A DNA stretch of 64,000 nt from Candidatus Palauibacter ramosifaciens (GCA_009845855.1 VXYT01000040.1:24367-88366), one strand, 5' to 3'; counted from the stretch's first letter, positions 1 to 60,131 are shown. Numbers and translations: made by a program. Notes: generated from the letters alone by a model not told the origin.

Positions 1-1756
1 TCTCATCATGCAGTCGATCTTCCGGATGGGGGTCCCGGTGTCGGGGAAGAACGTCTTCCCCTCGAACATCCAGGGCCTCCCCACCTGGTACGAGATCCGC
101 GTGAACGGGTCGGGCCACGTCGCGCGCACGCCGGACTTCGACCTCATCGTGGCGATGAATCCGGAGACCTACGCCCGGGACATCGAGGAACTCGTCCCCG
201 GCGGCTGGCTGCTGTACGACTCGAGCTGGCCCATGGCGGACACGCTGCGGCGCGAGGAGGTGATCTTCCTCGGCGTCCCGCTGGCCGAGATGTGCGTGAA
301 GGCGTTCGACGGCGGCCGCACGCGCATCCTGATGAAGAACATCGCCTACACGGGCGCCCTTGCCGCCCTCCTCGACATCGACATGGCGGTGATCCGCGGA
401 CTGCTCGAGGAGACCTTCGGCGAGCAGAAGCGTCACCTCCTCGAAGCGAACTTCGAGGCGATCCGGCTCGGCTACGACTACGCGGCCGAGAACTTCGAAT
501 GTCCCCTGCCGATCCGGCTCGAGGGCATGGATGCCACCCGTGAGTCGATTCTGATCGATGGCAACACGGCGGCGGCGCTCGGCTGCGTCTATGCGGGCGC
601 GACGGTCGCGGCCTGGTATCCGATTACGCCCTCGACCTCGCTCGTTGACGCCTTCACGGCCTATTGCCGGCGGTTGCGCGTCGAGGAGGAGACCGGGCGG
701 AGCAGGGCGGCGATCCTGCAGGCGGAGGACGAACTCGCGGCGGCGGGCATCACGATCGGCGCGGGGTGGGCCGGAGCCCGGGCCTTCACGGCGACGAGCG
801 GGGCCGGGATCTCGCTCATGACGGAGTTCATTGGACTCGCGTACTATGCCGAAGTCCCCTGCGTGTTCTTCGACGTCGAGCGCGTCGGCCCATCGACCGG
901 GATGCCGACGCGCACCCAGCAGGGCGACATCCTCCTCTGCGCCTACGCCTCCCACGGGGACACGAAGCACGTCTGCCTCTACCCGAAGGATCCGGCGGAG
1001 TGCTTCGAGTTCAGCGTGCAGGCGTTCGATCTTGCGGAACGCTTCCAGACGCCCGTCTTCGTGCTCTCCGACCTCGACATCGGGATGAACGACTGGGTCG
1101 TGCCCCGCTTCCGGTGGGACGACGAGTACAGGCCGGATCGCGGGAAGGTGCTCGACGCCGAGGCGCTCGCGGAGATCGAGACCTTCTATCGCTACCTTGA
1201 CGTGGACCGGGACGGGATTCCATACCGGACGATTCCGGGCGAAGACCCGAAGGGGGCCTACTTTACGCGCGGCTCCGGCCACACGAAGTACGGCAAGTAC
1301 ACGGAGGACCCGGACGAATACCAGGAAGTCGTCGACCGCATCGCCGAGAAGATCGACCGTGCGGCGGAGGCGGTGCCTCGCCCCGAGATTCGCACGCGGC
1401 CGGACGCGCGATACGGACTCGTCACGCTGGGCGGCTGCGACGGCGCGGTGCGCGAGGCCATCGAGCGCATGGAAGCGGAGGACGGGATCCGGCTCGACTA
1501 CATGCGGATCCGCGGGTTCCCCTTCGCCCCCGAAGTCGGGGGCTTCATCGAGGCCCACGACCTCAACATCGTCATCGAACAGAACCGGGACGCCCAGTTG
1601 AAGTCGCTCCTCACGCTGGAGACGCCGGCCTCGAAGGAACGGCTGACCTCGGTCCTCCGCTACGGAGGGCTCCCGCTGAGTGCCCGCCACGTCATCGCGG
1701 GCGTCAAGGATCGTCTCGGCCTCGCGGCGGAGACCGCCGAAGGGGTGAGCGCATGA
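1..1756 (+). CDS. korA: 2-oxoacid:ferredoxin oxidoreductase alpha subunit (N-terminal gamma-like domain fused); 5' end lies before the window
   Basis: 582-aa ORF whose N-terminus resembles the gamma domain of pyruvate/2-oxoglutarate:ferredoxin oxidoreductases; ORF runs to the window edge; stop overlaps the next start (ATGA at 1753). Confidence 0.8.
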   Translation, partial: LIMQSIFRMGVPVSGKNVFPSNIQGLPTWYEIRVNGSGHVARTPDFDLIVAMNPETYARDIEELVPGGWLLYDSSWPMADTLRREEVIFLGVPLAEMCVKAFDGGRTRILMKNIAYTGALAALLDIDMAVIRGLLEETFGEQKRHLLEANFEAIRLGYDYAAENFECPLPIRLEGMDATRESILIDGNTAAALGCVYAGATVAAWYPITPSTSLVDAFTAYCRRLRVEEETGRSRAAILQAEDELAAAGITIGAGWAGARAFTATSGAGISLMTEFIGLAYYAEVPCVFFDVERVGPSTGMPTRTQQGDILLCAYASHGDTKHVCLYPKDPAECFEFSVQAFDLAERFQTPVFVLSDLDIGMNDWVVPRFRWDDEYRPDRGKVLDAEALAEIETFYRYLDVDRDGIPYRTIPGEDPKGAYFTRGSGHTKYGKYTEDPDEYQEVVDRIAEKIDRAAEAVPRPEIRTRPDARYGLVTLGGCDGAVREAIERMEAEDGIRLDYMRIRGFPFAPEVGGFIEAHDLNIVIEQNRDAQLKSLLTLETPASKERLTSVLRYGGLPLSARHVIAGVKDRLGLAAETAEGVSA

Positions 1757-5237: not shown

Positions 5238-5297
5238 GGCGCCGGTCGCGCCGATGAGCCGATTCCCGCGCCGGACCCATCGTCTTCAGGAGGCGAA

Positions 5298-5867
5298 ATG
5301 CCGCATATCGACACGGTAGCTCCCGAGGAAGCAGAGGGGCTCGTCGCCCGCGAGTACGAGAAGGCCGTCCGCCGCGCGGGGCGCGTCTTCAACGTGATCT
5401 GCATCCAGAGTCTGAACCCGCCCGTCATGCGTGCCTCGATCCGGCTCTACGAGGCGCTGATGCTGGCGCCCGGACCGCTGGGGAGGGACGTGCGGGAGAT
5501 GCTCGCGACCGTGACCTCGCGCGAACTCGACTGCTTCTACTGAACGGAGGCGCACGGAGAGGATCTCCGTCAGGCGACCGGGGACGATGACCTGGCCCGC
5601 GCGATCCGGATCGACTATCGGACGGCGGGGCTCGACGCGAAGACGCGCCGGCTGATGGACTATGCGGTGGCGATCACGCGCGAGCCGACCTCCACGGCTC
5701 GGCCGGACATCGACGGGCTGCGGGAGGTCGGCTGGACCGACGCGCAGATCCTGACCGCGACGGAGGTCGTCGGCTTCTTCAACTACTACGTGCGCATGGT
5801 CGAGGCGCTCGGTGTAGAACCGGAGCCTGAGATGGAGCGGGACCCGGCCTTGTGGCCGGATCCCTGA
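5298..5867 (+). CDS. carboxymuconolactone decarboxylase (CMD/AhpD-like) family peroxidase-related selenoprotein; in-frame TGA (5541-5543) read as Sec
   Basis: ORFs 5298-5543 and 5655-5867 are in the same frame. Together they reconstitute one ~189-aa CMD-family protein. The TGA falls at the second Cys of the family C-x-x-C-x3-H motif (here C-F-Y-U-T-E-A-H). AGGAGG RBS 8 nt upstream of the ATG; hairpin 11 nt after the TGA. Confidence 0.7.
5554..5570 (+). promoter_or_regulatory. candidate bacterial SECIS hairpin for the CMD-family selenoprotein
   Basis: ACGGAGA/TCTCCGT 7-bp stem (or 5-bp stem with GAGGAUC loop), beginning 11 nt downstream of the in-frame UGA. Confidence 0.45.
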
Positions 5868-5888
5868 TCCCGGCCGCCCAGGCTGCTG

Positions 5889-8126
5889 CTAGCCTCCGGA
5901 CCGGCCTCGCGCGCGGGCGCCGCCGGTCGACCGCGAACTGCCGCCGGACCGGCGGACGGTGCCGCCGGACCGGGACCCGCCGCCGGATCGGCGGACCGCC
6001 CCGCCGGACCGGGACGCGCCGCCCGAACGGCTGACAGTGCCGCTCGACCTCGATGGCCCGGGGGGCCGCGCCGCCGGTCGCGATGACCGTGGGGCGGATG
6101 GCCGGGTCACGGGTCTCGTGGTGGACGGCGGGCGGCGAACGTCCGGCCGGGACGGCCTCGCCGCGGTGGGTCGCACGGGGGGCCTCGCCGGCACGGAGCG
6201 CACCGCCGGCCTCGCGGGATTCGACCTTGCCGTCGGCCGCGCCGTCGCGCCGCCCGTCCTCCGAACGGGCGGCGACTCCCGCGCCGTCCGCGGACGGACG
6301 ATCCGACGAACGCCCTCGTCGCCGGTCCGCGGGGCTGCGCGCTGTACGCCGCCGGAACCCGTCCGCGTCGCGGGTCGCACGGCCGGTCGTCTCGCGTCGT
6401 CGGGCACACCCCGCTCGCGCGCCGTGGGACGCCGGATCACCGGGCGAGCGCCGGTCCCCGATGCGGGCGGCGTTGCGCGCTGCACGCCGGATCGCTGCGT
6501 CGCCCGCTGCACACCGGGCCGCGCCGTCCTCGGCACGCCGGACCGCTCCGGCCGCAACGTACCGGCCTCCGGCGACCGTCTGGTCACCCGGACCGCCGGT
6601 GAGCCGGCCGTCCGCGAGGCACCGCTCGGCGCCCCGGCGGTCGCGTCGCGCGGGCGGGCCGACCGGCCATCGCGCCCTCGCAGCACGACGCGTTCGACCT
6701 CCCGCGGCAAGCCCGCGCCGCGATCGATGAAGCCGTCCGCATCGACCGCCGTTCTCCCGTCCCGCGAGACCGCGCGCCGCAGGCTCGCCAGCGTCTGCGC
6801 GGGTCGGCGCCGCGCCTCGCGCCCGAGCAGGCGGGAGTCCGTCAGCAGCACGCCGCGCTCGACCGCCTTCCGCCCGCGACCGAAGTCCGAACCGCCGACC
6901 GAGTAGAAGTGCTGTCGCCGGTGTCCGAGCCGGCCGTGCGGCAGGAATGTCCAGTGCCGATAGCGCCCGAAGCCGCCCCCGATGTGTCCGTAGACCCCGA
7001 AGTGGAAGCCCCAGCTGCTCCCGTAGTGGTTTCGGTAGTGGCGCCAGTAGTATCCCGAGGGAATCCAGCCCGCGTAGCTCGGGCCCCAGTACCAGTAGAC
7101 GTGCGCGACGGCGAAACGCCGGCCCGGGAACCAGACCCACCCCCAGCCGGGATCGAGGTCCCAGTACCCGTAGTGGTAGGGCACCCATCCCCATGGTTCG
7201 TACGAGACCCAGAACATTCCGCTGGGCGTGTGTCGCCAGCGCCCGTGCCGGTACGGAGCCCAGCCCGTTGAGACTCGCGGACGCCAGGCGACCCCCGCAT
7301 CGACGTGTACCCACGATCCGTGCCCGCGGAGCGAAGAGGCGGCGTAGTGGAGGTCCGGATCCAAATGGGCGGTGTACTCGCCGGACGCGTAGTCGCCGAC
7401 CCCCTGGCCCCACGCCTCCAGGCGATCGAGACCGGGGGCCGCCGCGAAGCGGAGCCGGTCCCCTCGCGCACCCTCGACGAAGAGGCTCTCCCCGCGGCGG
7501 ACCTCGGCGAGTTCCATCTCCGTCGTGACTTCCGCCACCCCCTCGCGCACGACGACCTCGCTCCGGCGCTCGTCGTCGACGACGATCAGGAAGGAACCGG
7601 CTCCCCGCGGCCGGATCGTCGCGTTAGGCGTGATGATGGAAGGCCACTCGGCCCCCGGTTGGTTCGGGGCCACCACGAGCTGCAGCGACCCGCGCGCGAT
7701 TTCGAGGATGGAGGCGGGATCGCTCGCATCCGCTGAGTTGGCGAGCGCGCGGAAGAGAAGCTCCGTCCGATCCCCGATCCGGACGAGGTTCCCGTCGGCG
7801 AGCGAAATCTCGATGCGGGATTCGCCGGACACGAAGATCCGGTCGCCGACGAGGACGGGCTCGTTCACCGCGAGCTGGATGCGATCCCGGGTGTCCCCCT
7901 GAATGAGCGTCGCTGACCCGTCCAGCGCCCGGAGGTATCCGTAGCTGCCGTCGATCCCGCTTTGCGCGACCGCGGCGTCATAATCGATCGGTGTCTCCGC
8001 CTCCTGGGCGGAGACCGGGGGCGCGACGAACGAGGTGCCCCACGCCACCCCGACCGCCCACACTCGCCGCCGGCCCCGCAACCACCGGGGCGCTCCGGAG
8101 TTTCCTCTCGCCTTTGCGAACCGCAT
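5889..8126 (-). CDS. FecR-domain secreted protein with W/Y/G-rich segment and basic RSGG/PR-rich C-terminal tail
   Basis: signal peptide (VAWGTSFVAPPVSAQ); FecR-like beta domain (aa 60-200); aromatic-rich aa 280-410; low-complexity tail with RSGG repeats; C-terminal extent uncertain. Confidence 0.5.
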   Translation of the reverse strand: MRFAKARGNSGAPRWLRGRRRVWAVGVAWGTSFVAPPVSAQEAETPIDYDAAVAQSGIDGSYGYLRALDGSATLIQGDTRDRIQLAVNEPVLVGDRIFVSGESRIEISLADGNLVRIGDRTELLFRALANSADASDPASILEIARGSLQLVVAPNQPGAEWPSIITPNATIRPRGAGSFLIVVDDERRSEVVVREGVAEVTTEMELAEVRRGESLFVEGARGDRLRFAAAPGLDRLEAWGQGVGDYASGEYTAHLDPDLHYAASSLRGHGSWVHVDAGVAWRPRVSTGWAPYRHGRWRHTPSGMFWVSYEPWGWVPYHYGYWDLDPGWGWVWFPGRRFAVAHVYWYWGPSYAGWIPSGYYWRHYRNHYGSSWGFHFGVYGHIGGGFGRYRHWTFLPHGRLGHRRQHFYSVGGSDFGRGRKAVERGVLLTDSRLLGREARRRPAQTLASLRRAVSRDGRTAVDADGFIDRGAGLPREVERVVLRGRDGRSARPRDATAGAPSGASRTAGSPAVRVTRRSPEAGTLRPERSGVPRTARPGVQRATQRSGVQRATPPASGTGARPVIRRPTARERGVPDDARRPAVRPATRTGSGGVQRAAPRTGDEGVRRIVRPRTARESPPVRRTGGATARPTARSNPARPAVRSVPARPPVRPTAARPSRPDVRRPPSTTRPVTRPSAPRSSRPAARPPGPSRSSGTVSRSGGASRSGGAVRRSGGGSRSGGTVRRSGGSSRSTGGARARGRSGG
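5930..6040 (-). repeat. tandem 12-20 nt GC-rich repeats (GCCGCCGGACCGG units) encoding the RSGG repeat tail
   Basis: visible direct repetition of ccgccggaccgg(g/c)... units on the + strand. Confidence 0.5.
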
Positions 8127-12547: not shown

Positions 12548-14305
12548 CTACGTGAACTCCTCGACGAGCTGGATCAGGCGGCGCAGGCCGAGGCCTTCGG
12601 GGCCGCCCACGCGGACGCGGAGCGCCCGGCGTTCGCGTTGGCCGAGGGCCGCGAGGTCCCCCAGCGCCTGCGCCCGGATCAGTTGGCGGAAGGTGAAGTC
12701 CGACTCGGGGACATGGACGTGCTCGCCGGCGTCGTCGACCAGCTGCAGAAATGCGCCGTTATCCGGCCCCCCCTTGTGCAGTTGTCCGGTCGAATGCAGG
12801 AAGCGGGGGCCATGGCCCAGCGTGGTCGCGGCGCCCGTGGCTCGGGCGAGGGCCGCGCGCAACGTCCCGAGCAGCCCCTCCTCCTCCTCGCCGCCCGCAA
12901 GAAACGCCTGCACGGCGACGTAGTCCGTCGGGGCCACCTCGGCCAGGAAGTCTCCCAGCCGCTCTCGGATGCCGTCCGGATCCGGCGGCACCGGCGTTCG
13001 GGGCGGGGCGTGTCCGAACTGCGGCAACTCCCAGACGAGGTCGATCTCATCCGCTTCGGAGAGCTGCGCGTCCTCCGCAGACTCGGCCTCCGCCGGCCCT
13101 CCGTCCGGCGCGCCCTCGGCCGCCATCGCCCGCCCCGCGAGGCGCTTGGCGAGCTGCACGTCCGGCTGGTTGAAGGGATGGATGCCGAGTGCGGCTGCGG
13201 CCATGGCCACGCCCACCTCCCAGACGAAGAAGAGCGCGCCGAGTTCCTCGGGCCGCTCGAGCCGGATCCGCAACGTCGGGTGGCCGGCCGCTTCGAGCGC
13301 GTCGACGAGGTCCGGCGTCTCATCGGCTTCTCCCCATTGTTCCGCTTCGCGCGCGGCGTCGCCGCCGAGGAGGAGGCCGACGAATACCCTGTCCCCGCCA
13401 TAGTCGCCCGGTGGCCGCGGGGGCTCGGCGACGACCGGGACGATGCCCCGGCCCTCCTTGCCGGTGCTCTCGGCGAGGAGCTGCTCCGCCCAGTCCGGAA
13501 ACGCGTCCCAGTCGGACGCCGCGATGAAGGTGACCTTGTCGCGCCCCGCGAGCGCGAATTCCCCCAGCGCGGCCCCGAGGAGGAAGCCCGGGTTGTCGTG
13601 GACTTCGTCCTTGCAGGTATCCGCCGCCTCAGCCGCCTCCTGGAGGAGTGTCGCGACATCGGCGCCCGCGAGCGCCGCCGGCGCCAAGCCGAACGGGCTC
13701 AGGGCCGAGAAGCGGCCCCCGACCTTGGGGGGCGCCTCGAACACGGCGCGGAATCCCCGCTCGCGGCCGAGTTCGGCGAGGAGAGAGCCGGGGTCCGTGA
13801 TCGCGATGAAGTGCGCGCCGGGGTCTTCCACGACCTCCGCGGTCCGCGACCAGAAGTGGCGGAAGAGCGAGAGCGTTTCGACGGTCGTGCCCGACTTGCT
13901 GGAGACGACGAAGATCGTGTTCGCCGGGCGCAGCCACTCGAGGTCGCGGAGCGCCCCCGGGTGCGTCGTATCGACGAGCGTGAGCGGCAGCCCCTCGCCC
14001 TGCATCGTCCGCGCGATCACTTCGGGCGCGAGGCTCGACCCCCCCATGCCGAGCAGCACGAGATCGGTGAACCAGAAGGGCACGCTCGCGCGCAGCTCCT
14101 CGAGCGGGCGGAGCGCGGCGGGAGACGTCTCCGGGAGGTCCAGCCAACCGAGCCGGTCGGCGAGTTCCGGGATGTCCGGGTCCGCGCTCCACAGCGTGGG
14201 ATCCCGCCGCCAGAGCCGCGCCACCGCGTCCTCGGCGGCCCATTCCCGGAGCCGGCGCTCGACGCCCTCCGTGTGGGGACCGGCGGAAAGATCGATCTCG
14301 ATCAT
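12548..14305 (-). CDS. pgi: glucose-6-phosphate isomerase
   Basis: 585 aa; SIS-domain motifs (LGMGGSSLAPEV, VVSSKSGTTVETL). Confidence 0.85.
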   Translation of the reverse strand: MIEIDLSAGPHTEGVERRLREWAAEDAVARLWRRDPTLWSADPDIPELADRLGWLDLPETSPAALRPLEELRASVPFWFTDLVLLGMGGSSLAPEVIARTMQGEGLPLTLVDTTHPGALRDLEWLRPANTIFVVSSKSGTTVETLSLFRHFWSRTAEVVEDPGAHFIAITDPGSLLAELGRERGFRAVFEAPPKVGGRFSALSPFGLAPAALAGADVATLLQEAAEAADTCKDEVHDNPGFLLGAALGEFALAGRDKVTFIAASDWDAFPDWAEQLLAESTGKEGRGIVPVVAEPPRPPGDYGGDRVFVGLLLGGDAAREAEQWGEADETPDLVDALEAAGHPTLRIRLERPEELGALFFVWEVGVAMAAAALGIHPFNQPDVQLAKRLAGRAMAAEGAPDGGPAEAESAEDAQLSEADEIDLVWELPQFGHAPPRTPVPPDPDGIRERLGDFLAEVAPTDYVAVQAFLAGGEEEEGLLGTLRAALARATGAATTLGHGPRFLHSTGQLHKGGPDNGAFLQLVDDAGEHVHVPESDFTFRQLIRAQALGDLAALGQRERRALRVRVGGPEGLGLRRLIQLVEEFT

Positions 14306-14326
14306 GGTCTCGGGGTCTCCGGCGGC

Positions 14327-16003
14327 TCAGAAGAGCCCGACCACGCTCCCGTCCTCGACGATCCGGATCCCCTCCGCGGCGGGCACGCGCGGGAGCCCCG
14401 GCATCGTCATGACGGTCCCCGCCCTGGCCACGACGAAGCCCGCCCCCGCCGAGGGACGCACGTCCTGAACCGTGATGCGGAAGCCGGTCGGCCGCCCCAG
14501 GCGCGCCGGGTCGTCGCTCAGACTGTTCGGCGTCTTCGCGATGCAGACGGGCGTATCCCCGAGCCCGGCCGTCTCGAGTTGGCGGATGTCCTTCGAGGCG
14601 CGCGCCGCATAGTCCACGCCGTCCGCTCCGTACACCTTCCGCGCGATCGCCTCGATCTTGTCCCGGATCGAAGCCTCCGCATCGTATTTCGGCGCGAAGG
14701 CGGCCGCCCCCTCGTCGAGCGCCGCCAGCACTGCGCGGGCCAGATCCTCGCAGCCGGCGCCACCCAGCGCGTGGCCATCGGAGCGGGCCCAGGGTGCGCC
14801 CAGATCCTCGCACGCCTCGGCCACCGCGGCGATCTCCTCGTCGGAGTCCGTCGCGAACACGTTGATCGCCACCACGGGCTCGATCCCGAAGCCGCGGATG
14901 TTCTCGACGTGCGCGCCCAGATTCGCGAGCCCGCCGCGGACCGCGTCGGGCTCCGGGGCCGAGAGCGCCGTGCGGTCGCCCCCGCCGTGCAGCTTGAGGG
15001 CGCGGATCGTGGCCACGAGCACGGTGGCTTCCGGGTTCAGCCCTCCCGTCCGGCACTTGATGTCGAAGAACTTCTCGGCGCCGAGGTCCGACCCGAAGCC
15101 CGCCTCCGTGATCACGACATCGCCGAAGGCCAGCCCGGCCCGCGTCGCCATGAGGGAATTGCAGCCGTGCGCGATGTTCGCGAAGGGTCCGCCGTGGACG
15201 AAGGCCGGCGTGCCCTCCAGCGTCTGAACGAGGTTCGGTCCGATCGCCTCCCGCAGCAGCAGGGTCATGGCGCCCGCCACGTTCAGTTCGCGCGCCCGCA
15301 CGGGCTCCCCGCCGTAGTCGTATCCCACGATGATGCTGCTCAGCCGCTCCTCCAGGTCCTCGAGGCTGGCGGCGAGGCAGAAGATCGCCATCACCTCCGA
15401 GGCGGCTGTGATCATGAACCCATCCTCGCGCGGCACTCCGTTGATCCGGCCTCCGAGCCCGACGACGATGTTCCTGAGCGCCCGGTCGTTCATGTCGACG
15501 GCGCGCCGCCAGGTGATCTGGCGCGGGTCGATCCCGAGCCGGTTCCCCTGCTGCAGGTGGTTGTCCAGTGCGGCCGAGAGGAGCGCGTGCGCCGACGTGA
15601 TCGCGTGCAGGTCCCCCGTGAAGTGGAGGTTGATGTCCGCCATCGGGATCACCTGCGAGTACCCTCCGCCGGCGGCGCCGCCCTTGACGCCGAACACCGG
15701 GCCCAGGCTCGGCTCGCGAATGCAGAGCACCGAGTTCGCTCCCACGCGGCGCAGTCCGTCGGCGAGCCCCACGGAGACGGTCGTCTTGCCCTCGCCCGCC
15801 GCCGTCGGAGTGATGCCGGTGACGAGGACGAGCCGGCCCGCTCCGGGCTCACGCGCGAAGATGGACTCCGGGCCAACTTTCGCCTTGAAGTGGCCGTAGG
15901 GCACGAGTTCATCGAGCCCCAGCCCGATCTTCTCCCCGATCTCCCCGATGGGCCGGGGCGTCGCGGCCTCGGCGATCTGTACGTCCGTGAGCATCCGTAT
16001 CAT
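14327..16003 (-). CDS. fhs: formate--tetrahydrofolate ligase
   Basis: 558 aa; PTAAGEGKTT P-loop signature of FTHFS. Confidence 0.9.
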   Translation of the reverse strand: MIRMLTDVQIAEAATPRPIGEIGEKIGLGLDELVPYGHFKAKVGPESIFAREPGAGRLVLVTGITPTAAGEGKTTVSVGLADGLRRVGANSVLCIREPSLGPVFGVKGGAAGGGYSQVIPMADINLHFTGDLHAITSAHALLSAALDNHLQQGNRLGIDPRQITWRRAVDMNDRALRNIVVGLGGRINGVPREDGFMITAASEVMAIFCLAASLEDLEERLSSIIVGYDYGGEPVRARELNVAGAMTLLLREAIGPNLVQTLEGTPAFVHGGPFANIAHGCNSLMATRAGLAFGDVVITEAGFGSDLGAEKFFDIKCRTGGLNPEATVLVATIRALKLHGGGDRTALSAPEPDAVRGGLANLGAHVENIRGFGIEPVVAINVFATDSDEEIAAVAEACEDLGAPWARSDGHALGGAGCEDLARAVLAALDEGAAAFAPKYDAEASIRDKIEAIARKVYGADGVDYAARASKDIRQLETAGLGDTPVCIAKTPNSLSDDPARLGRPTGFRITVQDVRPSAGAGFVVARAGTVMTMPGLPRVPAAEGIRIVEDGSVVGLF

Positions 16004-16138
16004 CCCGATGAGGTTCGATGAGGGCCGTCCCCCGAAAGGAATCCGGGGGTTGCATATGGCGCTTTTCCGAGCGGAGACTCTACCGCCCGCGCCGTCCGCT
16101 GAAAACCGTACCGCGTATCGTCCCCGCCCCGAAGCCCC

Positions 16139-17842
16139 TCAACCCGCGGTGGCGGCGGACCCTCCGGGCCCCTGCGGCTCCCGCCTGCGCAGGGCGAGGC
16201 CGACGGCAAGAACCGCCAGGGTTCCGACGACGTTGTACCACAGCCACGCGATCTCCGTGAAGCGCGACACGGCGAGCACGGCGAGCATGGCGGAGATCAG
16301 GCCGTAGAAGGCGCCCGCCGCGGTTGCCCGCTTCACCAGGAAGGCGAGGAGGAAGACACCGAGGAGCGCCCCGTAGAAGATCGAGCCGACTTCGTTGACT
16401 GCTTCGACGAGCGACCCCAACTGGCCTGCGTAGAGCGCGAAGAGCACGGCGAACCCGCCCCACCCCAGCGTGGCGAGCCGCGAGACGAGCAGATAGTGGG
16501 CGTCCGTCCCCTCCGGTTTCACGTACCTCCGATAGAAGTCAATCACCGTCGCGCTCGACAGGGCCGTGAGTTCGGAGTCCAGCGAGGACATCGCGGCCGC
16601 GAAGATGACGGCGATCAGCAGTCCCAGGATGCCGGCGGGGACATAGGAAATGAGATAGGACGGGAAGACGTAGTTCACATCGTTCGACGAAGACCCGCGC
16701 ACCTCGGACACGAGCGATTTCGACGCCTGCCTCAACTGCGCCAGTTCGTCATCATACCCGGCGATCCGCCGCTGCATCGCCCCGGGATCCTCGCCGGTGC
16801 GGCGCGCTTCCAGCACCGCGAGCGTGCTCTCCCGGCGCAGTTCGTGCGTGCGTTCGTGCTCGGCCTCCAGCGCGGCGAAGTCTCCGGCGCGGGGACTTTC
16901 CGCGACCATGGCGGCTTCCGCCGAATTGAAGACGAGCGGGGGACGCTCGAAGTGATAGAAGACATAGAGGAGGACGCCGATGGCGAGGATGAAGATCTGC
17001 ATCGGGACTTTGACGAAGGCGTTGAAGATGAGCGAAAGGCGGCTCTGGCGGAGCGAGCTTGCCGTCAGATAGCGCTGCACCTGGCTCTGGTCGGTCCCGA
17101 AGTAGCCCAGGGCGAGAAAGAGCCCTCCGATGAGTCCCGACCAGAGCGTGTAGCGATTCGTGGGGTCCCAGGAGAGGTCAATGCTGCGCCACATCTCGTG
17201 GATCCCGCCGATGTACGCCACATCGCCGACGCCCACCCCCTCCGGCAGCGTCGCGAACAGCACGGCGATCGCGATCCCGATGCCGGCGAACATGACAATC
17301 ATCTGCAGCACGTCCGTCCAGATGACGGCCGTGATGCCTCCCATGATCGTATAGGCCACGGTGATCAGGCCCATGACGAGAATCGTCACGCGCTCGTCCC
17401 AGCCCATGATGACGGAGAGGACGATGGCCGGGGCGTAGAGGACGATCCCTGCGGAGAGTCCGCGCGACACGAGAAAGAGAAAACTCGTCAGCGACCGGGT
17501 TCGGGGGTCGAAGCGGCGTTCGAGGTACTCGTAGGCGGTGAACACTTTCGAGCGATAGAAGAAGGGAACGAAGACCACGCAGAGAATGACCATGGCGATC
17601 GGCTGGCCCAGGTAGAACTGGACGAACTCCATGCCGTCGTCGAAGGCCTGTCCGGTCGTACCGATATACGTGATCGCGCTCGCCTGCGTCGCCATGACGG
17701 AGAGGCCGATGGCGCCCCAGCCCAGCCGGCGGTTGGCGAGAAAGAACCCCTCGACGCCGCGGTTCTTCCGGCTCTGTCGCCAGGCGAAGGCGACGACGGC
17801 GCCGAAATAGACCGCAAAGACGATCCAGTCGAGGCCGCTCAC
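16139..17842 (-). CDS. sodium:solute symporter family transporter with cytoplasmic coiled-coil insertion
   Basis: 567 aa, 13+ TM pattern typical of SSS; ~70-aa charged insertion (AESPRAGDFAALEAEHERTHELRRE...). Confidence 0.85.
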   Translation of the reverse strand: MSGLDWIVFAVYFGAVVAFAWRQSRKNRGVEGFFLANRRLGWGAIGLSVMATQASAITYIGTTGQAFDDGMEFVQFYLGQPIAMVILCVVFVPFFYRSKVFTAYEYLERRFDPRTRSLTSFLFLVSRGLSAGIVLYAPAIVLSVIMGWDERVTILVMGLITVAYTIMGGITAVIWTDVLQMIVMFAGIGIAIAVLFATLPEGVGVGDVAYIGGIHEMWRSIDLSWDPTNRYTLWSGLIGGLFLALGYFGTDQSQVQRYLTASSLRQSRLSLIFNAFVKVPMQIFILAIGVLLYVFYHFERPPLVFNSAEAAMVAESPRAGDFAALEAEHERTHELRRESTLAVLEARRTGEDPGAMQRRIAGYDDELAQLRQASKSLVSEVRGSSSNDVNYVFPSYLISYVPAGILGLLIAVIFAAAMSSLDSELTALSSATVIDFYRRYVKPEGTDAHYLLVSRLATLGWGGFAVLFALYAGQLGSLVEAVNEVGSIFYGALLGVFLLAFLVKRATAAGAFYGLISAMLAVLAVSRFTEIAWLWYNVVGTLAVLAVGLALRRREPQGPGGSAATAG

Positions 17843-17861
17843 GCGACTCCCTGGAGGCCGC

Positions 17862-18008
17862 TCACGGCACGCCGAAGTCGAGCAGACGGGTGACCATATA
17901 GAGGAGGAGGATGAGTCCGGCCGTATAGACGATCACCGACACGTACAGGGCGCGCCAGCTGCGGAAGGGTCCGATCCGGCCTTCCGTCTCGTCCCGTCGC
18001 TCCGTCAC
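17862..18008 (-). CDS. possible 48-aa single-TM small protein (SSS-associated small subunit?)
   Basis: GTG start overlaps the upstream stop (GTGA); C-terminal TM LYVSVIVYTAGLILLLYMV; sits immediately upstream of the symporter. Confidence 0.3.
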   Translation of the reverse strand: MTERRDETEGRIGPFRSWRALYVSVIVYTAGLILLLYMVTRLLDFGVP

Positions 18009-32038: not shown

Positions 32039-32193
32039 ACCCTCTCCGTATTCGATTCGTGGGCTGCCGGGTGCGCGAGCGCGGTGAGACTATCGCGCGC
32101 TGCCCGCCCGGGCGACATTGGGAACATGCGGGGCGCGATCGCGTATCGGTGCTAGCGAGGTAACACGGCGGCGACCGACCGGGAGGCGATGGG

Positions 32194-32790
32194 ATGACGA
32201 CACTGTTCTTCGGAGACATGCTCCCCCCGTCGCCCGAAGCCGAAAAGCGCCGCGAACACGTCCTCGTCGGCACTGCCACCCCCCTCAAGCTCGATGTCCG
32301 GCCGATCGAGCACGACCTGACGCCCCGGGGCAGTATCTGCATCGGGACCTTTCACGAAGACAAGCCGATCGGGCGCTGCGCGATCCCCCGCGACAGCGTG
32401 CAGCACTTCCTCGAGATGGATCTCTTCGACCGGCCGGTCGCGCTCGCGCTGAACGTCCGGAAGGGCGGGCCCGGCATGGAGGGCAGCCTGCTCGCGCTCG
32501 TGCCGATGGACCGGGCGTCGCGGGGCGGATCCGAGCGGGATGAACCGTGGAGGGCCAGCGTACCGGGAGCGGCGTACGACGATGCGATCAAATCGGGCGG
32601 CGACGACTCCGGGTCCACTCAACTGGTCGGGATCTTCCTCGGCGAGGTCGTGCGTTTCGAGGGCGACCGGCGGGAACCGGCGTCGATGCTGCGCGAAGCC
32701 GCCGACATGCTGGCGTGCGTGATCCGCGGGCAGGTGGACAGCGTCGGCGGCCGAGTGCTCGAAGACCTGACCGCAAGCCCGGAAGGCTGA
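32194..32790 (+). CDS. hypothetical protein
   Basis: GGAGG RBS 9 nt upstream; no recognisable family; competing antisense ORF judged less likely. Confidence 0.4.
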   Translation: MTTLFFGDMLPPSPEAEKRREHVLVGTATPLKLDVRPIEHDLTPRGSICIGTFHEDKPIGRCAIPRDSVQHFLEMDLFDRPVALALNVRKGGPGMEGSLLALVPMDRASRGGSERDEPWRASVPGAAYDDAIKSGGDDSGSTQLVGIFLGEVVRFEGDRREPASMLREAADMLACVIRGQVDSVGGRVLEDLTASPEG

Positions 32791-36478: not shown

Positions 36479-38200
36479 ATGAACCGCAGACTCCTTCGGG
36501 CGCTCCTTTTCGCCGCCGTCCTCGGATTCCCGCATGTTGCGACCGCGGCCGCTCAGGAACCGGCCTTCGATATCCTGCTGCGCGGCGGCCGCGTCCTGGA
36601 TGGCACGGGAAATCCATGGTTCCGCGCCGACGTGGGGATCCGCGGCGGGCGCATCGCCCGGGTCGGGGATCTGGCCGGCGCCGCCGCCGACCGCGTGATC
36701 GAACTCGCTGGCCGGTACGTCGTCCCCGGATTCATCGACATTCATTCGCACGCGGACCAGGGACTCGACGCGGAGGGAGACTCGGGAAGCGAAGGCGCGC
36801 GCCGCCGGGCCGCTCCCAACCTCGTGAGTCAGGGCATCACCACCGTCGTCATCAACCAGGACGGCGGGGGGCCGTGGCCGATCGCGGACCAGCGCGGGCG
36901 GCTCGAGTCCCGCGGGCACGGGCCCAACGCGGCACTCATGGTCGGGCACAACACGATCCGCCGCATGGCGCTCGGCAACGACTTCATGCGTCCGTCGACC
37001 CCGGCCGAGGTCGAGCGCATGACGGAGCTGGTGGAGCAGGGGATGGCCGAGGGCGCCTACGGCCTCAGCGCCGGGCTCGAGTACGTGCCGGGGATCTGGA
37101 GCGAGACATCCGAACTCTTTCCGCTCGTCGAGGCGGCGGGCCGGAGCGGCGGGATCTACATCGTGCACGAACGCAGTTCCGGCATGACGCCGATGTGGTT
37201 CTGGCCGAGCCAGGACGACCCCGGTCCTCCCACCATGATCCAGACCATCCTCGAGGATATCGAAGTCGCGGAGCGCACGGGCGTGACGACCGTAGCGACC
37301 CACATCAAGGCCCGGGGCGCGGACTTCTGGGGCGCAGGACGTGCCCTCGTGGACCTCATAGAACGGGCCCGCGCGCGCGGAGTCCCGATCTTCGCCGACC
37401 AGTACCCCTACAACACGACCGGGAGCGACGGGAACACCGTGCTCCTCCCCCGCTGGATCTTCCCCGGCGGCGGACCGGGCGCGCGTCCGGCCGGACAGGA
37501 AGCGGTCGACTACGCCGCCGTCCTGACGTACGTGCTTTCCGATCCCCAGCGCGGTGAACGCGTCCGCCTCGACATCGCGCACGAGATCAGCCGCCGCGGC
37601 GGGCCCGAGAACCTCGTCATCATGGACCACCCCGACGAGATGCTGGTGGGCAGGACGGTGGCGGAGCTGGCGGCCGAGTGGGATGCGTTCCCTGTCGAAG
37701 TTGCGATCCGGCTGCAATTGGAGGGCGACCGAGCGCGGCCCGGCGGGGCGCGCGTGCGCGGGTTCTCCCTCTCCGAGATCGATGTCGAGGAGTTTTCGGC
37801 CCATCCGTGGCTCGTGACAGCGTCCGATGCCGGCATCGCCCTCCCGGGCGACGGGCCGGTGCACGCGCGCTTCTACGGCACCTTCCCCCGCAAGATCAAG
37901 CGCTACGCGATGGATCTCGGCATCTTGTCCGCGGAGAGCGCGGTGCGCTCGATGACAAGTCTCCCGGCGCAGGTCATGGGGCTCCGCGACCGGGGTCTCA
38001 TCCGGGAAGGGCTGGTGGCGGACATCGCGGTGCTGGACCTGGGCGAACTCCAGGACAACGCGACCTTCTTCGAGCCGCACCAGTACCCGTCGGGTGTGGA
38101 CTACGTGCTGGTGGGCGGCACTTTTGTGGTCGACGACGGCGACTTGACGTGGGCACTGCCCGGCGCCGTCCTCACGCCGGAGGCGGATGATGAGAGCTGA
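36479..38200 (+). CDS. secreted N-acyl-D-amino-acid deacylase family (amidohydrolase 3)
   Basis: signal peptide; FDILLRGGRVLDGTG...VVPGFIDIHSHAD. Confidence 0.8.
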   Translation: MNRRLLRALLFAAVLGFPHVATAAAQEPAFDILLRGGRVLDGTGNPWFRADVGIRGGRIARVGDLAGAAADRVIELAGRYVVPGFIDIHSHADQGLDAEGDSGSEGARRRAAPNLVSQGITTVVINQDGGGPWPIADQRGRLESRGHGPNAALMVGHNTIRRMALGNDFMRPSTPAEVERMTELVEQGMAEGAYGLSAGLEYVPGIWSETSELFPLVEAAGRSGGIYIVHERSSGMTPMWFWPSQDDPGPPTMIQTILEDIEVAERTGVTTVATHIKARGADFWGAGRALVDLIERARARGVPIFADQYPYNTTGSDGNTVLLPRWIFPGGGPGARPAGQEAVDYAAVLTYVLSDPQRGERVRLDIAHEISRRGGPENLVIMDHPDEMLVGRTVAELAAEWDAFPVEVAIRLQLEGDRARPGGARVRGFSLSEIDVEEFSAHPWLVTASDAGIALPGDGPVHARFYGTFPRKIKRYAMDLGILSAESAVRSMTSLPAQVMGLRDRGLIREGLVADIAVLDLGELQDNATFFEPHQYPSGVDYVLVGGTFVVDDGDLTWALPGAVLTPEADDES

Positions 38201-38762
38201 ACGGATGGCGTGCGCGTCGAGTGTCGGCGCCCTCGTGGCGCTGATCGGGCTCGGGTGCGCCCCGGGCGACGATGCGTCCGCAGCGGCTGGCGGCTCGGCG
38301 GATCGCGACCCGGCCGCGAGCGGTGCCCCGGATGGGGTGCCCTCGGGGGCCAAGCCCGCGCCCGGCGACGCGTTTCGCACCCTGGACGGCGGCGAGGCCG
38401 GCTTTGAAGACCTGCGGGGCAACGTGGTCGTCGCGAACCTGTGGGGCACCTGGTGCCTCCCGTGCCGCGATGAGTTGCCGGAGCTCGTGGAGTTGGCCCG
38501 CATCTACGACGGCCGGCCGGTCGTCATCCTGGGACTCGCCGTCGATTCCGGCGACGTCGATGAGATCCGTGACTTCCTCGAGGATTTCGGCGTCGAATAC
38601 CCCAACTGGATGATCGGGATGGATGACGCCGTCGCCACCTTCGGGGCCGTCGGCTTCCCGACGACGGTGATGGTGGATCCGGAGGGCTGGATCCGAAAGG
38701 AACTCCTCGGCCCCCAGACCGCCGCATCCCTGACAGCCGAGATCGAAGCCCTCCTCCCCTGA
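38187..38762 (+). CDS. TlpA-like thiol:disulfide oxidoreductase (thioredoxin fold)
   Basis: WGTWCLPCRDELPEL CxxC motif; N-terminal signal/lipoprotein-like. Confidence 0.75.
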   Translation: MMRAERMACASSVGALVALIGLGCAPGDDASAAAGGSADRDPAASGAPDGVPSGAKPAPGDAFRTLDGGEAGFEDLRGNVVVANLWGTWCLPCRDELPELVELARIYDGRPVVILGLAVDSGDVDEIRDFLEDFGVEYPNWMIGMDDAVATFGAVGFPTTVMVDPEGWIRKELLGPQTAASLTAEIEALLP

Positions 38763-58221: not shown

Positions 58222-58924
58222 GTCGACGAGGAAGTGCGCGATCTTCGGGCTGGTGGCCGCGGCCGCCTCGCTTGCGGCGTTCGCCGGGGGTGAGCCGCAG
58301 GACCCCTCGGAGGAGGCGGCCGGTCAGGCCGGGGCCGCCGACCGGCAGGCGTCCGAATCCGAGACCGTCGCGCGCTACCGGGAACGAGCCGCTTCCTCCG
58401 ATCGGCCGATCGACCATTACAACTACGGGACCGCTCTGCTCCATGACGGGCAGGTGGGCGAGGCGCAGCCCCCCCTGGAACTTTCCATCGGCAGCGAGCG
58501 GGGCGAGGTGCGTGAGAGCGCCTTCTACAACCTCGGACTCAGCACGGCCCTCGACGGCCGCTTCGCTCAGAGCGACCCTTCCGCGCGGCGGGCTGCCCTC
58601 CAGTCGGCGCGCGAAGCCTTTCGCGAAGTCCTCCGCCGCCGCGTGGACGATGAGGATGCGCGCTGGAACCTCGAACTCGTCGAGCGCTGGCTCGAGGAGG
58701 AAGGGGAGAGCGGCGGTGACGAACAGCAGGGCGGGCAAGGACAGTCTCCGCAGGGGGCCGGCGCCGGGGCCGCGGCGGCCGCCGGCTCCGGCGAGATGGA
58801 GATGCTGTCGCCCGAACAGGCGGCGGCGCTTCTCGAACAGGCGGGCGACGCGGAGGCGGCGATCCGCGACCGCGTCATGGGCCGCAACCGTTTCCAGGAT
58901 CCGGTCGTGGAGCGGAACTGGTGA
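58214..58924 (+). CDS. TPR repeat protein (BatC-like)
   Basis: TPR-like helices (YNYGTALLHDGQ..., FYNLGLSTAL...). Confidence 0.65.
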   Translation: MVESTRKCAIFGLVAAAASLAAFAGGEPQDPSEEAAGQAGAADRQASESETVARYRERAASSDRPIDHYNYGTALLHDGQVGEAQPPLELSIGSERGEVRESAFYNLGLSTALDGRFAQSDPSARRAALQSAREAFREVLRRRVDDEDARWNLELVERWLEEEGESGGDEQQGGQGQSPQGAGAGAAAAAGSGEMEMLSPEQAAALLEQAGDAEAAIRDRVMGRNRFQDPVVERNW

Positions 58925-59982
58925 ACTCGCCTTCCGCCGAAGCGGCCCGCCTGACCCAGTACTCGCACGGGGCCGGCTGAGCGTGCAAGCTCGGCCCGGA
59001 GGATCTGGGCCGCATCCTGCAGCATGTTCCGCACTTTCCGGACGACCGGCTCCTCGTGGGACTCGAGGGCCCGGACGACGCCGCCGTGTATTTGCTCGAC
59101 GAGGGAGAGGCCATCGTCGCGAGCCTCGACTTCTTCACGCCGCTCGTCGACGATCCGGCCGACTTCGGAGCCATCGCGGCCGCGAACGCGCTCGGAGATC
59201 TGTACGCGATGCGGGCCCGCCCCCTGTTCGCGCTCAATATCCTGGCGATTCCCGCGGGGACCCTCTCGGATGAGACGGTCGGCGCGATCCTCCGCGGCGC
59301 GGGGGAAGTGTGTCGCGAGGCCGGCATCGCCGTGGCCGGGGGACACTCGATCGACGACGCGGAGCCGAAGTTCGGACTGGTGGCCATCGGGCTCGGCGAT
59401 CCCGACCGCCTGTGGAGAAAGGGCGGAGCGCGGCCGGGAGATGCGCTCGTGCTGGGCAAGGCGCTCGGAACAGGTGTCATCACGACCGGGCTCAAGCGCG
59501 GCGTGGCGGACCCGGCCGACCTCCTCGTCGCCGTCGATTCCATGCGGCAGCTCAACCGCGAGGCGGCGGCCGTCCTTGCCGGCTTCGACGTTCATGCCGC
59601 AACCGACGTCACGGGCTTCGGACTCCTGGGGCACCTGCTCGAGATGTGCCGCGCGTCGGACGCGAGCGCCCGGCTCCGGGCTTCGGCGCCCAGGCTTCTC
59701 CCCGGAGCGCTGCGCCTCGCCGGCGAGGGGTGCGTGCCGGGCGGCACGACGCGGAACCGGGACGCCTACGCGTCGCACGTGCAGTGGGCTGACGCCGTCC
59801 CCGACGACCTGCGCAACCTGATCCTGGACCCGCAGACTTCCGGCGGACTGTTGGCGGCCGTCCCTGCGGACGAGGCGTCGGCGGCCTCGTCCGCGCTCGC
59901 CGCGGCGGGCTATGCGGCCGCCGTGATCGGAGAGGTCATCGAGCGTGACGATCCGGCGGTCGGGATCGAGGTGTCGCCCTGA
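58921..59982 (+). CDS. selD: selenide, water dikinase (selenophosphate synthetase), itself a selenoprotein: in-frame TGA 58978-58980 read as Sec
   Basis: GTG start overlapping the BatC stop (GTGA). N-terminus MNSPSAEAARLTQYSHGAGUACKLGPEDL aligns with the SelD LTQYSHGAGCGCK motif, with TGA at the catalytic Cys/Sec position. The downstream 308 aa form a canonical AIR-synthase-like SelD body. Confidence 0.85.
58992..59012 (+). promoter_or_regulatory. candidate bacterial SECIS hairpin for selD
   Basis: CGGCCC/GGGCCG 6-bp stem with 9-nt loop GGAGGAUCU, starting 12 nt after the UGA. Confidence 0.45.
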
Positions 59983-60057: not shown

Positions 60058-60131
60058 GGGCCCGTAGCTCAGCTGGTTAGAGCAGGGGACTCATAATCCC
60101 AAGGTCGCAGGTTCGAATCCTGCCGGGCCCA
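60058..60131 (+). tRNA. tRNA with anticodon CAU; acceptor-stem C4-G69/C5-G68 favours tRNA-Ile2 (lysidine) over elongator tRNA-Met
   Basis: cloverleaf: acceptor GGGCCCG/CGGGCCC, D-arm GCTC-AGCTGGTTA-GAGC, anticodon loop CUCAUAA, T-arm GCAGG-TTCGAAT-CCTGC; no encoded CCA. Confidence 0.85.

Follow-up and report, generated by a model that had tools for sequence, protein, structure and literature searches.

The window analyzed here is the whole stretch of 64,000 nucleotides from Candidatus Palauibacter ramosifaciens, with a GC content of 69.7%. Translation of positions 5298-5870 revealed that 5298-5867 of the + strand is one frame of 189 sense codons, interrupted only by a TGA at 5541-5543. The features of this locus are the following:

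5288-5293, + strand: Shine-Dalgarno-like AGGAGG, 4 nt 5' of the ATG, read from the sequence
5298-5867, + strand: predicted AhpD-like (TIGR01926) selenoprotein gene, 189 codons including Sec82, with stop codon TGA at 5865-5867
5541-5543, + strand: in-frame TGA, predicted U82 of the motif C79-F-Y-U82-T-E-A-H86, aligned to Cys in homologs
5554-5570, + strand: SECIS-like hairpin ACGGAGA-GGA-UCUCCGU, 7-bp stem, GGA triloop at 5561-5563, -9.0 kcal/mol

A mechanical ORF finder reported two ORFs in this one frame, 5298-5543 (81 aa) and 5655-5867 (70 aa), and the stretch between them (5544-5654) is stop-free in the frame of the gene. The sequence-only reading that preceded this analysis had described the same two ORFs as split by the TGA alone, which translation confirmed: the context of the TGA at 5541-5543 reads RELDCFY-stop-TEAHGEDLR, and also REMLATVTSRELDCFY-stop-TEAHGEDLRQ. 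Coding signal persists through the TGA, the GC3 being 0.83 on its 5' side and 0.89 on its 3' side. The downstream gene is convergent (5889-8126, - strand, 745 residues), with 22 nt between its 3' end and the stop codon of the AhpD-like gene. The C-terminal third of its product is repetitive and of low complexity, rich in Arg, Pro, Ser, Gly and Thr, and only one weak family match was obtained for it, Lsa33 adhesin-like, which at 36.6 bits stays below the cutoff of 420.

For family searches, the TGA at 5541-5543 was replaced by Cys in the product. The resulting protein matched the NCBIfam model TIGR01926 ("peroxidase-related enzyme") with 125.7 bits against a cutoff of 81.8, residues 5-178 covering positions 4-178 of the 178 of the profile, and Pfam CMD (PF02627) with 42 bits against a cutoff of 23, the latter giving superfamily placement only. 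These matches bear out the read-through product of about 189 aa of the CMD family that had been proposed from the sequence. Within the superfamily, a predicted redox centre of CxxU type favours the AhpD-like branch over a decarboxylase (PcaC). We also found matches to the solved family members 2PFX, 2OYO, 3C1L, 6K40 and 2PRR (E = 1e-18 to 1e-24, residues 14-181), a set of "uncharacterized peroxidase-related proteins" in which 6K40 was deposited as alkyl hydroperoxide reductase AhpD. The AhpD core-domain model TIGR00778 reached 21.0 bits, below its cutoff of 27.8. The model NF041238 (AhpD_rel_CFYUT) was considered for its identical CFYUT motif and was rejected, as the score was 42.5 bits against a cutoff of 175; it also fails on length, having 357 positions against 189 residues, with positions 218-341 alone being matched.

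The interruption of the frame could be taken at face value, UGA termination being dominant and the 81-residue fragment and/or a 70-residue peptide starting at ATG 5655 being the functional products. Both pieces are indeed called as genes in public records, and Sec insertion in bacteria is generally inefficient. However, neither fragment has a complete CMD/AhpD domain, and the alignments to the family HMM and to the solved structures run through the TGA without a break; in the alignments to 2PFX and 2OYO, the TGA column corresponds to the second Cys of CFYC and CLYC, respectively. Moreover, the stretch 5544-5654 shows conservation as coding sequence and includes His86 of the catalytic relay. 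We consider that dominant termination is highly improbable.

The column of the TGA was compared with that of Cys homologs. The CFY-U-TEAH of the window protein corresponds to CFYCTEAH in P0001, CFYCMEAH in P0002 and CEYCQLHH in P0011, and among solved structures to CFYCLVAH (2PFX) and CLYCAVSH (2OYO). Cys is found in each of them at the place where the sequence-only reading had put the TGA, which is that of the second redox Cys. Relatives in the protein database are of four kinds: Cys forms (P0001, P0002 and P0011), "W" forms (P0004-P0008), N-terminal pieces ending at CFY (P0010, P0012, P0018) or at CRY (P0017), and C-terminal pieces beginning just past the TGA (P0003, P0015) or further downstream (P0016); in P0009, P0013 and P0014, the region is skipped. 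The W of the database entries is a TGA in the DNA, translated by the gene caller under genetic code 4.

In order to cover the relatives at the DNA level, one genome per species was scanned, which gave 198 relatives, of which 80 loci were retained. Results showed a TGA at this column in all 80 retained loci, as well as in L001 and L002, and a Cys codon in none of the 80; the sampling was unbiased toward TGA, because the pattern used for the column was back-translated from C or W. The 80 loci belong to Gemmatimonadota, Acidobacteriota, Planctomycetota, Fidelibacterota, KSB1 and others, down to 45% identity, and the nearest orthologs are those of Candidatus Palauibacter species (Gemmatimonadota), with 88-94% protein identity. 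The protein alignment contains 24 invariant columns, 11 of them downstream of the TGA.

These data bear on two ways in which the TGA could be accidental. A pseudogene, created by a nonsense mutation in an ordinary Cys-form AhpD-like gene, would fit with the public annotation as two fragments without Pfam match and with the existence of Cys forms in the clade (P0001, P0002). But nonsense mutations arising at random would not strike the redox Cys again and again, and the part of the gene after the TGA would decay, whereas the TGA occupies the exact column in 80/80 loci of several phyla, and conservation and GC3 are as strong after it as before. We regard this explanation, of exceedingly low probability, as ruled out in practice because the TGA column is conserved and 11 of the 24 invariant columns lie after the TGA. 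The second is a sequencing or assembly error hiding a true TGC or TGT codon, which comes to mind since the source is a metagenome-assembled genome. Nevertheless, the TGA is present in every related genome, and the identical 570-nt gene, TGA included, was found in 3 further public records (ERZ23491842, ERZ23492297, SRR9841431); because of these records, we discount an error, to which practically no probability can be given. The public contig VXQX01000017.1 (GCA_009838765.1) agrees with the window, with 0 mismatches in 15,543 nt.

The hairpin at 5554-5570 begins 11 nt past the A of the TGA, and the spacing from the UGA to the loop is 17 nt. Bacterial SECIS elements have been described by a loop of 3-9 nt, a stem of 4-16 bp, a spacing of 16-37 nt, a G within the first two loop positions and an MFE of -7.5 or lower (PMC13188914). 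The hairpin falls within every one of these published limits, so that the SECIS geometry claimed at the outset (5554-5570, 11 nt downstream) held up (PMC13188914). Folding of the 19-mer gave z = -3.0 and folding of 60 nt gave z = -0.9. Upon synonymous recoding with the codon usage of the window, a stem of at least 7 bp appeared in 2.8% of trials (P = 0.028), and the MFE test by synonymous recoding was not significant at the AhpD-like site (P = 0.13-0.31, with 0.13 for 45 nt). The hairpin signal of the single sequence is modest, and the weight rests on the local stem (P = 0.028) and on conservation at the level of the family.

At the family level, the hairpin lies in the codons for H-G-E-D-L-R, which we counted in 75 distinct sequences. 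His is CAC in 74/75, Gly is GGR in 65/67, Glu is GAG in 65, Asp is GAU in 66/74, Leu is CUC in 67/71 and Arg is CGU in 65/75. Some of these are minority codons in the window, where, among the synonymous codons for the respective amino acid, GAU accounts for 26%, CGU for 7% and GGA for 15.5%; from window usage, the six hairpin codons have a joint probability of 1e-3. Moreover, a compensatory change was observed in 4 sequences, in which Gly GGR is replaced by Ala GCA together with a synonymous change of CUC to CUG, turning a G-C pair into a C-G pair. The sequences with HAEDLR instead of HGEDLR are L060, L063, L068 and L076 (KSB1, Calditrichaceae and an unclassified bin), and in them the fourth stem pair is maintained as C-G. 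For the hairpin helix, the share of paired cells is 90.2%, compared with 24-59% in slid controls, and RNAalifold recovered the same hairpin core. The family-level hairpin signal is strong, the hairpin sequence being held by synonymous-codon choice.

Two Cys-form homologs, L083 and L084, keep the hairpin sequence near-intact (CAC GGC/GGG GAG GAT CTC CGT), in the 63 nt after the Cys codon. This looks like a recent conversion from Sec to Cys in which a fossil SECIS remains. The hairpin overlaps a conserved peptide and these Cys forms keep its sequence, and because of this a clean negative control for the hairpin is absent. The contig of L083 carries the Cys-form gene of P0001 at 115-669 (+) and an AhpD-like paralog at 789-1382 (-) with its own in-frame TGA (NRCHY-stop-TESHAEFLRRL), called as two fragments; the pair suggests that a Sec form and a Cys form adjoin in one organism. 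Permissive Rfam scans around the AhpD-like hairpin and around that of selD, described below, gave no SECIS family match, and the bacterial SECIS models of Rfam evidently do not cover this hairpin type.

We also looked for other in-frame TGAs in the window. Two window scans for in-frame TGAs that have coding signal before and after them as well as a SECIS-like hairpin returned position 5541 alone, and as the sole full match of a window-wide scan it represents more than chance. The TGA flagged at 14329 (-) was rejected, as it has no SECIS-like hairpin and is the junction of two adjacent same-frame genes. In this region (12548-17932, - strand), three stop-to-stop ORFs abut in one frame with single stops between them, two of which are TGA, and they correspond to glucose-6-phosphate isomerase, formate-tetrahydrofolate ligase and a Na+/solute symporter; the region is not a case of read-through, because these are three separate genes and the junction at 14329 lacks a SECIS-like hairpin. 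A looser scan pointed to a TGA at 32788 (+) flanked by 208 open codons upstream and 240 downstream, both stretches having a coding-like GC3; no SECIS-like hairpin was found there, and this TGA coincides with the stop of the ORF 32164-32790. Finally, a ResA/TlpA-like thiol-disulfide oxidoreductase at 38148-38762 (+) gave a weak match to WAxxUGC_long and was set aside, as it has an ordinary WCLPC and no in-frame TGA.

The window also contains selD, as the sequence-only reading had noted, with a TGA and a hairpin of its own:

58921-59982, + strand: selD (selenophosphate synthetase), TIGR00476 353.8 bits, NF002098 345.4 bits
58978-58980, + strand: in-frame TGA of selD, in the context RLTQYSHGAG-U-ACKLGPEDL, at the catalytic Cys column
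58992-59012, + strand: SECIS-like hairpin of selD, 9-bp stem, GGA triloop at 59001-59003, -16.2 kcal/mol

The probable start codon of selD, GTG, shares nucleotides with the stop codon of the ORF upstream (GTGA), and the profile match starts directly past a stop codon. The TGA of selD aligns to the first Cys in the GAGCGCK motif of the E. coli protein (3U0O), a residue that we take to be the catalytic Cys17. In the selD hairpin, 20 nt separate the UGA from the loop, folding gave z = -3.5 and the MFE test by synonymous recoding gave P = 0.005-0.01; the core GAGGAUCU is common to the selD and AhpD-like hairpins. Judged by these features, selD is itself Sec-encoded and constitutes in-genome evidence for the Sec trait.

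Concerning the other components of the trait, no match to selA or selB was found among about 40 window ORFs (NCBIfam or Pfam), nor in 4.7 kb of extra flank, and a search with ARAGORN, which covered the 64-kb window, 60 related loci and the extended flank L085, yielded no tRNA-Sec. The Rfam gathering scan of the whole window returned tRNA-Met only. This tRNA-Met (CAT), at 60058-60131 (+), lies 75 nt 3' of selD and is the sole tRNA in the window.

The absence of selA, selB and tRNA-Sec from the 64 kb is one of the points that could be raised in favor of a UGA read as Trp, Gly or Cys, genome-wide or locally, with the hairpin as a mere stimulator of read-through; another is the W given by gene callers to the homologs under code 4. 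Against this, TGA is the commonest stop codon of the window, ending 19 of the 25 confident ORFs, and because of this TGA is not reassigned. In addition, Trp or Gly at the catalytic Cys of CxxC would destroy function, the gene for SelD, the enzyme devoted to selenium activation, combines in this genome a TGA at the catalytic Cys with a matching hairpin, and the family is already recognised as one of selenoproteins (PMC1088965, PMC13188914). A standard amino acid at this codon is in our opinion very unlikely.

Taking all evidence together, we propose that 5298-5867 very probably encodes a 189-residue AhpD-like (TIGR01926/COG2128, CMD-fold) thiol-selenol oxidoreductase, in which the UGA of codon 82 specifies Sec; actual Sec insertion and the binding of SelB are steps that we infer. 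During translation, the hairpin at 5554-5570 would function as a bacterial SECIS located inside the codons for His-Gly-Glu-Asp-Leu-Arg. SelB with Sec-tRNA(Sec) would bind it, and Sec would be delivered to the ribosome instead of release factor 2, the selenophosphate for Sec synthesis being presumably supplied by the SelD of the window itself.

Regarding catalysis, the proton relay of M. tuberculosis AhpD consists of Glu118, Cys130, His132, Cys133 and His137, and that of PA0269 of Glu36, Cys48, Tyr50, Cys51 and His55 (PMC3141380). The corresponding residues of the window protein are Glu67, Cys79, Tyr81, Sec82 and His86, with a spacing identical to that of the AhpD relay, and E67, C79, Y81 and H86 are invariant in the protein alignment. 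In the CxxC centre of AhpD, the second Cys is exposed and carries out the attack, and Sec82 would occupy its place. This attacking position is suggested because its counterpart in M. tuberculosis AhpD, Cys133, is exposed and cross-links AhpC through a disulfide (PMC6626918). The enzyme may then cycle between a selenol/thiol form and a Cys79-Sec82 selenenylsulfide, with a peroxide or an oxidised protein partner as the substrate to be reduced. No peroxiredoxin or ahpC was found among the window ORFs scanned, and an all-against-all clustering of the ORFs of the 80 loci showed no neighbour conserved beyond individual clades that would indicate a redox partner.

The main value of these results is for annotation. 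The sequence-only reading had anticipated that such a gene would by default be mis-annotated as two fragments, and in all public copies examined (L085-L092, for example VXQX01000017.1) we found indeed 81- and 70-residue genes without Pfam match, so that the gene is hidden as two short hypothetical proteins in every one of them. The family-specific SECIS signature ACGGRGA-GGA-UCUCCGU, given by the very tight conservation of the hairpin within a conserved peptide, could be used for re-annotating the AhpD-like family. Moreover, the AhpD-like gene and the Sec-encoded selD suggest that a Palauibacter-like Gemmatimonadota lineage uses selenocysteine; selenium is not mentioned in the Palauibacterales ecogenomics paper. 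The understanding of selenoproteins is unchanged, the family, the motif and the mechanism having been described in 2005-2008.

A more speculative idea, which we put forward tentatively and hold to be rather doubtful, is that the TIGR01926 clade with C-[FH]-Y-U-x-E-A-H-G-E-D-L-R depends obligately on Sec. It is suggested by the TGA in 80/80 species-representative genomes of at least 6 phyla, by a SECIS built into the invariant HGEDLR codons with almost no synonymous drift, and by the fact that the sole Cys forms seen appear to be recent conversions retaining the SECIS, one of them beside a Sec paralog. If this was true, Cys could not functionally replace Sec in this enzyme, the gene with its embedded SECIS would have spread between phyla as a unit, and Palauibacterales, which are widespread (marine sediment, sponge-associated), would depend on selenium.

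The two predicted selenoproteins of the window can be compared with known systems. SelD is among the commonest bacterial selenoproteins (PMC2398784), and the window selD resembles Sec-containing SelD in having a TGA at the catalytic Cys column and a downstream hairpin. With M. tuberculosis AhpD, partner of AhpC and of lipoamide-DlaT, the AhpD-like protein has in common the CMD fold family and the CxxC-type centre. It differs in having predicted Sec for Cys133 and Tyr for His132, the Tyr being as in PA0269, in its low overall sequence similarity, in a TIGR00778 score below cutoff and in the lack of a nearby ahpC or peroxiredoxin. The closest solved relatives are 2PFX (CFYCLVAHG), 2OYO (CLYCAVSHG), 3C1L, 2PRR and 6K40, which are all Cys forms, whereas the window protein is predicted to carry Sec. 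The family of NF041238, which is "hypothetical protein 1" of the Sargasso Sea study and an alkylhydroperoxidase-related (seleno)protein, shares C-F-Y-U-T with it and is also a CxxU selenoprotein (PMC13188914).

The nearest known system is the AhpD-like selenoprotein family itself (COG2128 YciW / TIGR01926; "AhpD-like 1" of Zhang and Gladyshev). That AhpD-like selenoproteins exist, as stated in the sequence-only reading, has been published since 2005 (PMC1088965, PMC2398784): in that year, a Sargasso Sea study introduced AhpD-like (COG2128) CxxU proteins, represented by 27 sequences, as a novel selenoprotein family (PMC1088965), and AhpD-like proteins with TIGR01926 and CxxU are listed in recent reviews (PMC9312934, and PMC13188914 of 2026). 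In GOS, AhpD-like CxxU ranked fourth in abundance among the selenoprotein families of prokaryotes, and this wider family counted 902 Cys homologs and 299 Sec forms (PMC2398784), whereas the Sec form is essentially universal in the clade sampled here (80/80). The CxxU, the downstream SECIS-like hairpin and the Cys-form homologs are common to the known family and to the window gene. By its sequence, the gene has every defining feature of the AhpD-like CxxU family and is a member of this already known family, with nothing essential different and with a Palauibacter-like Gemmatimonadota as the host.
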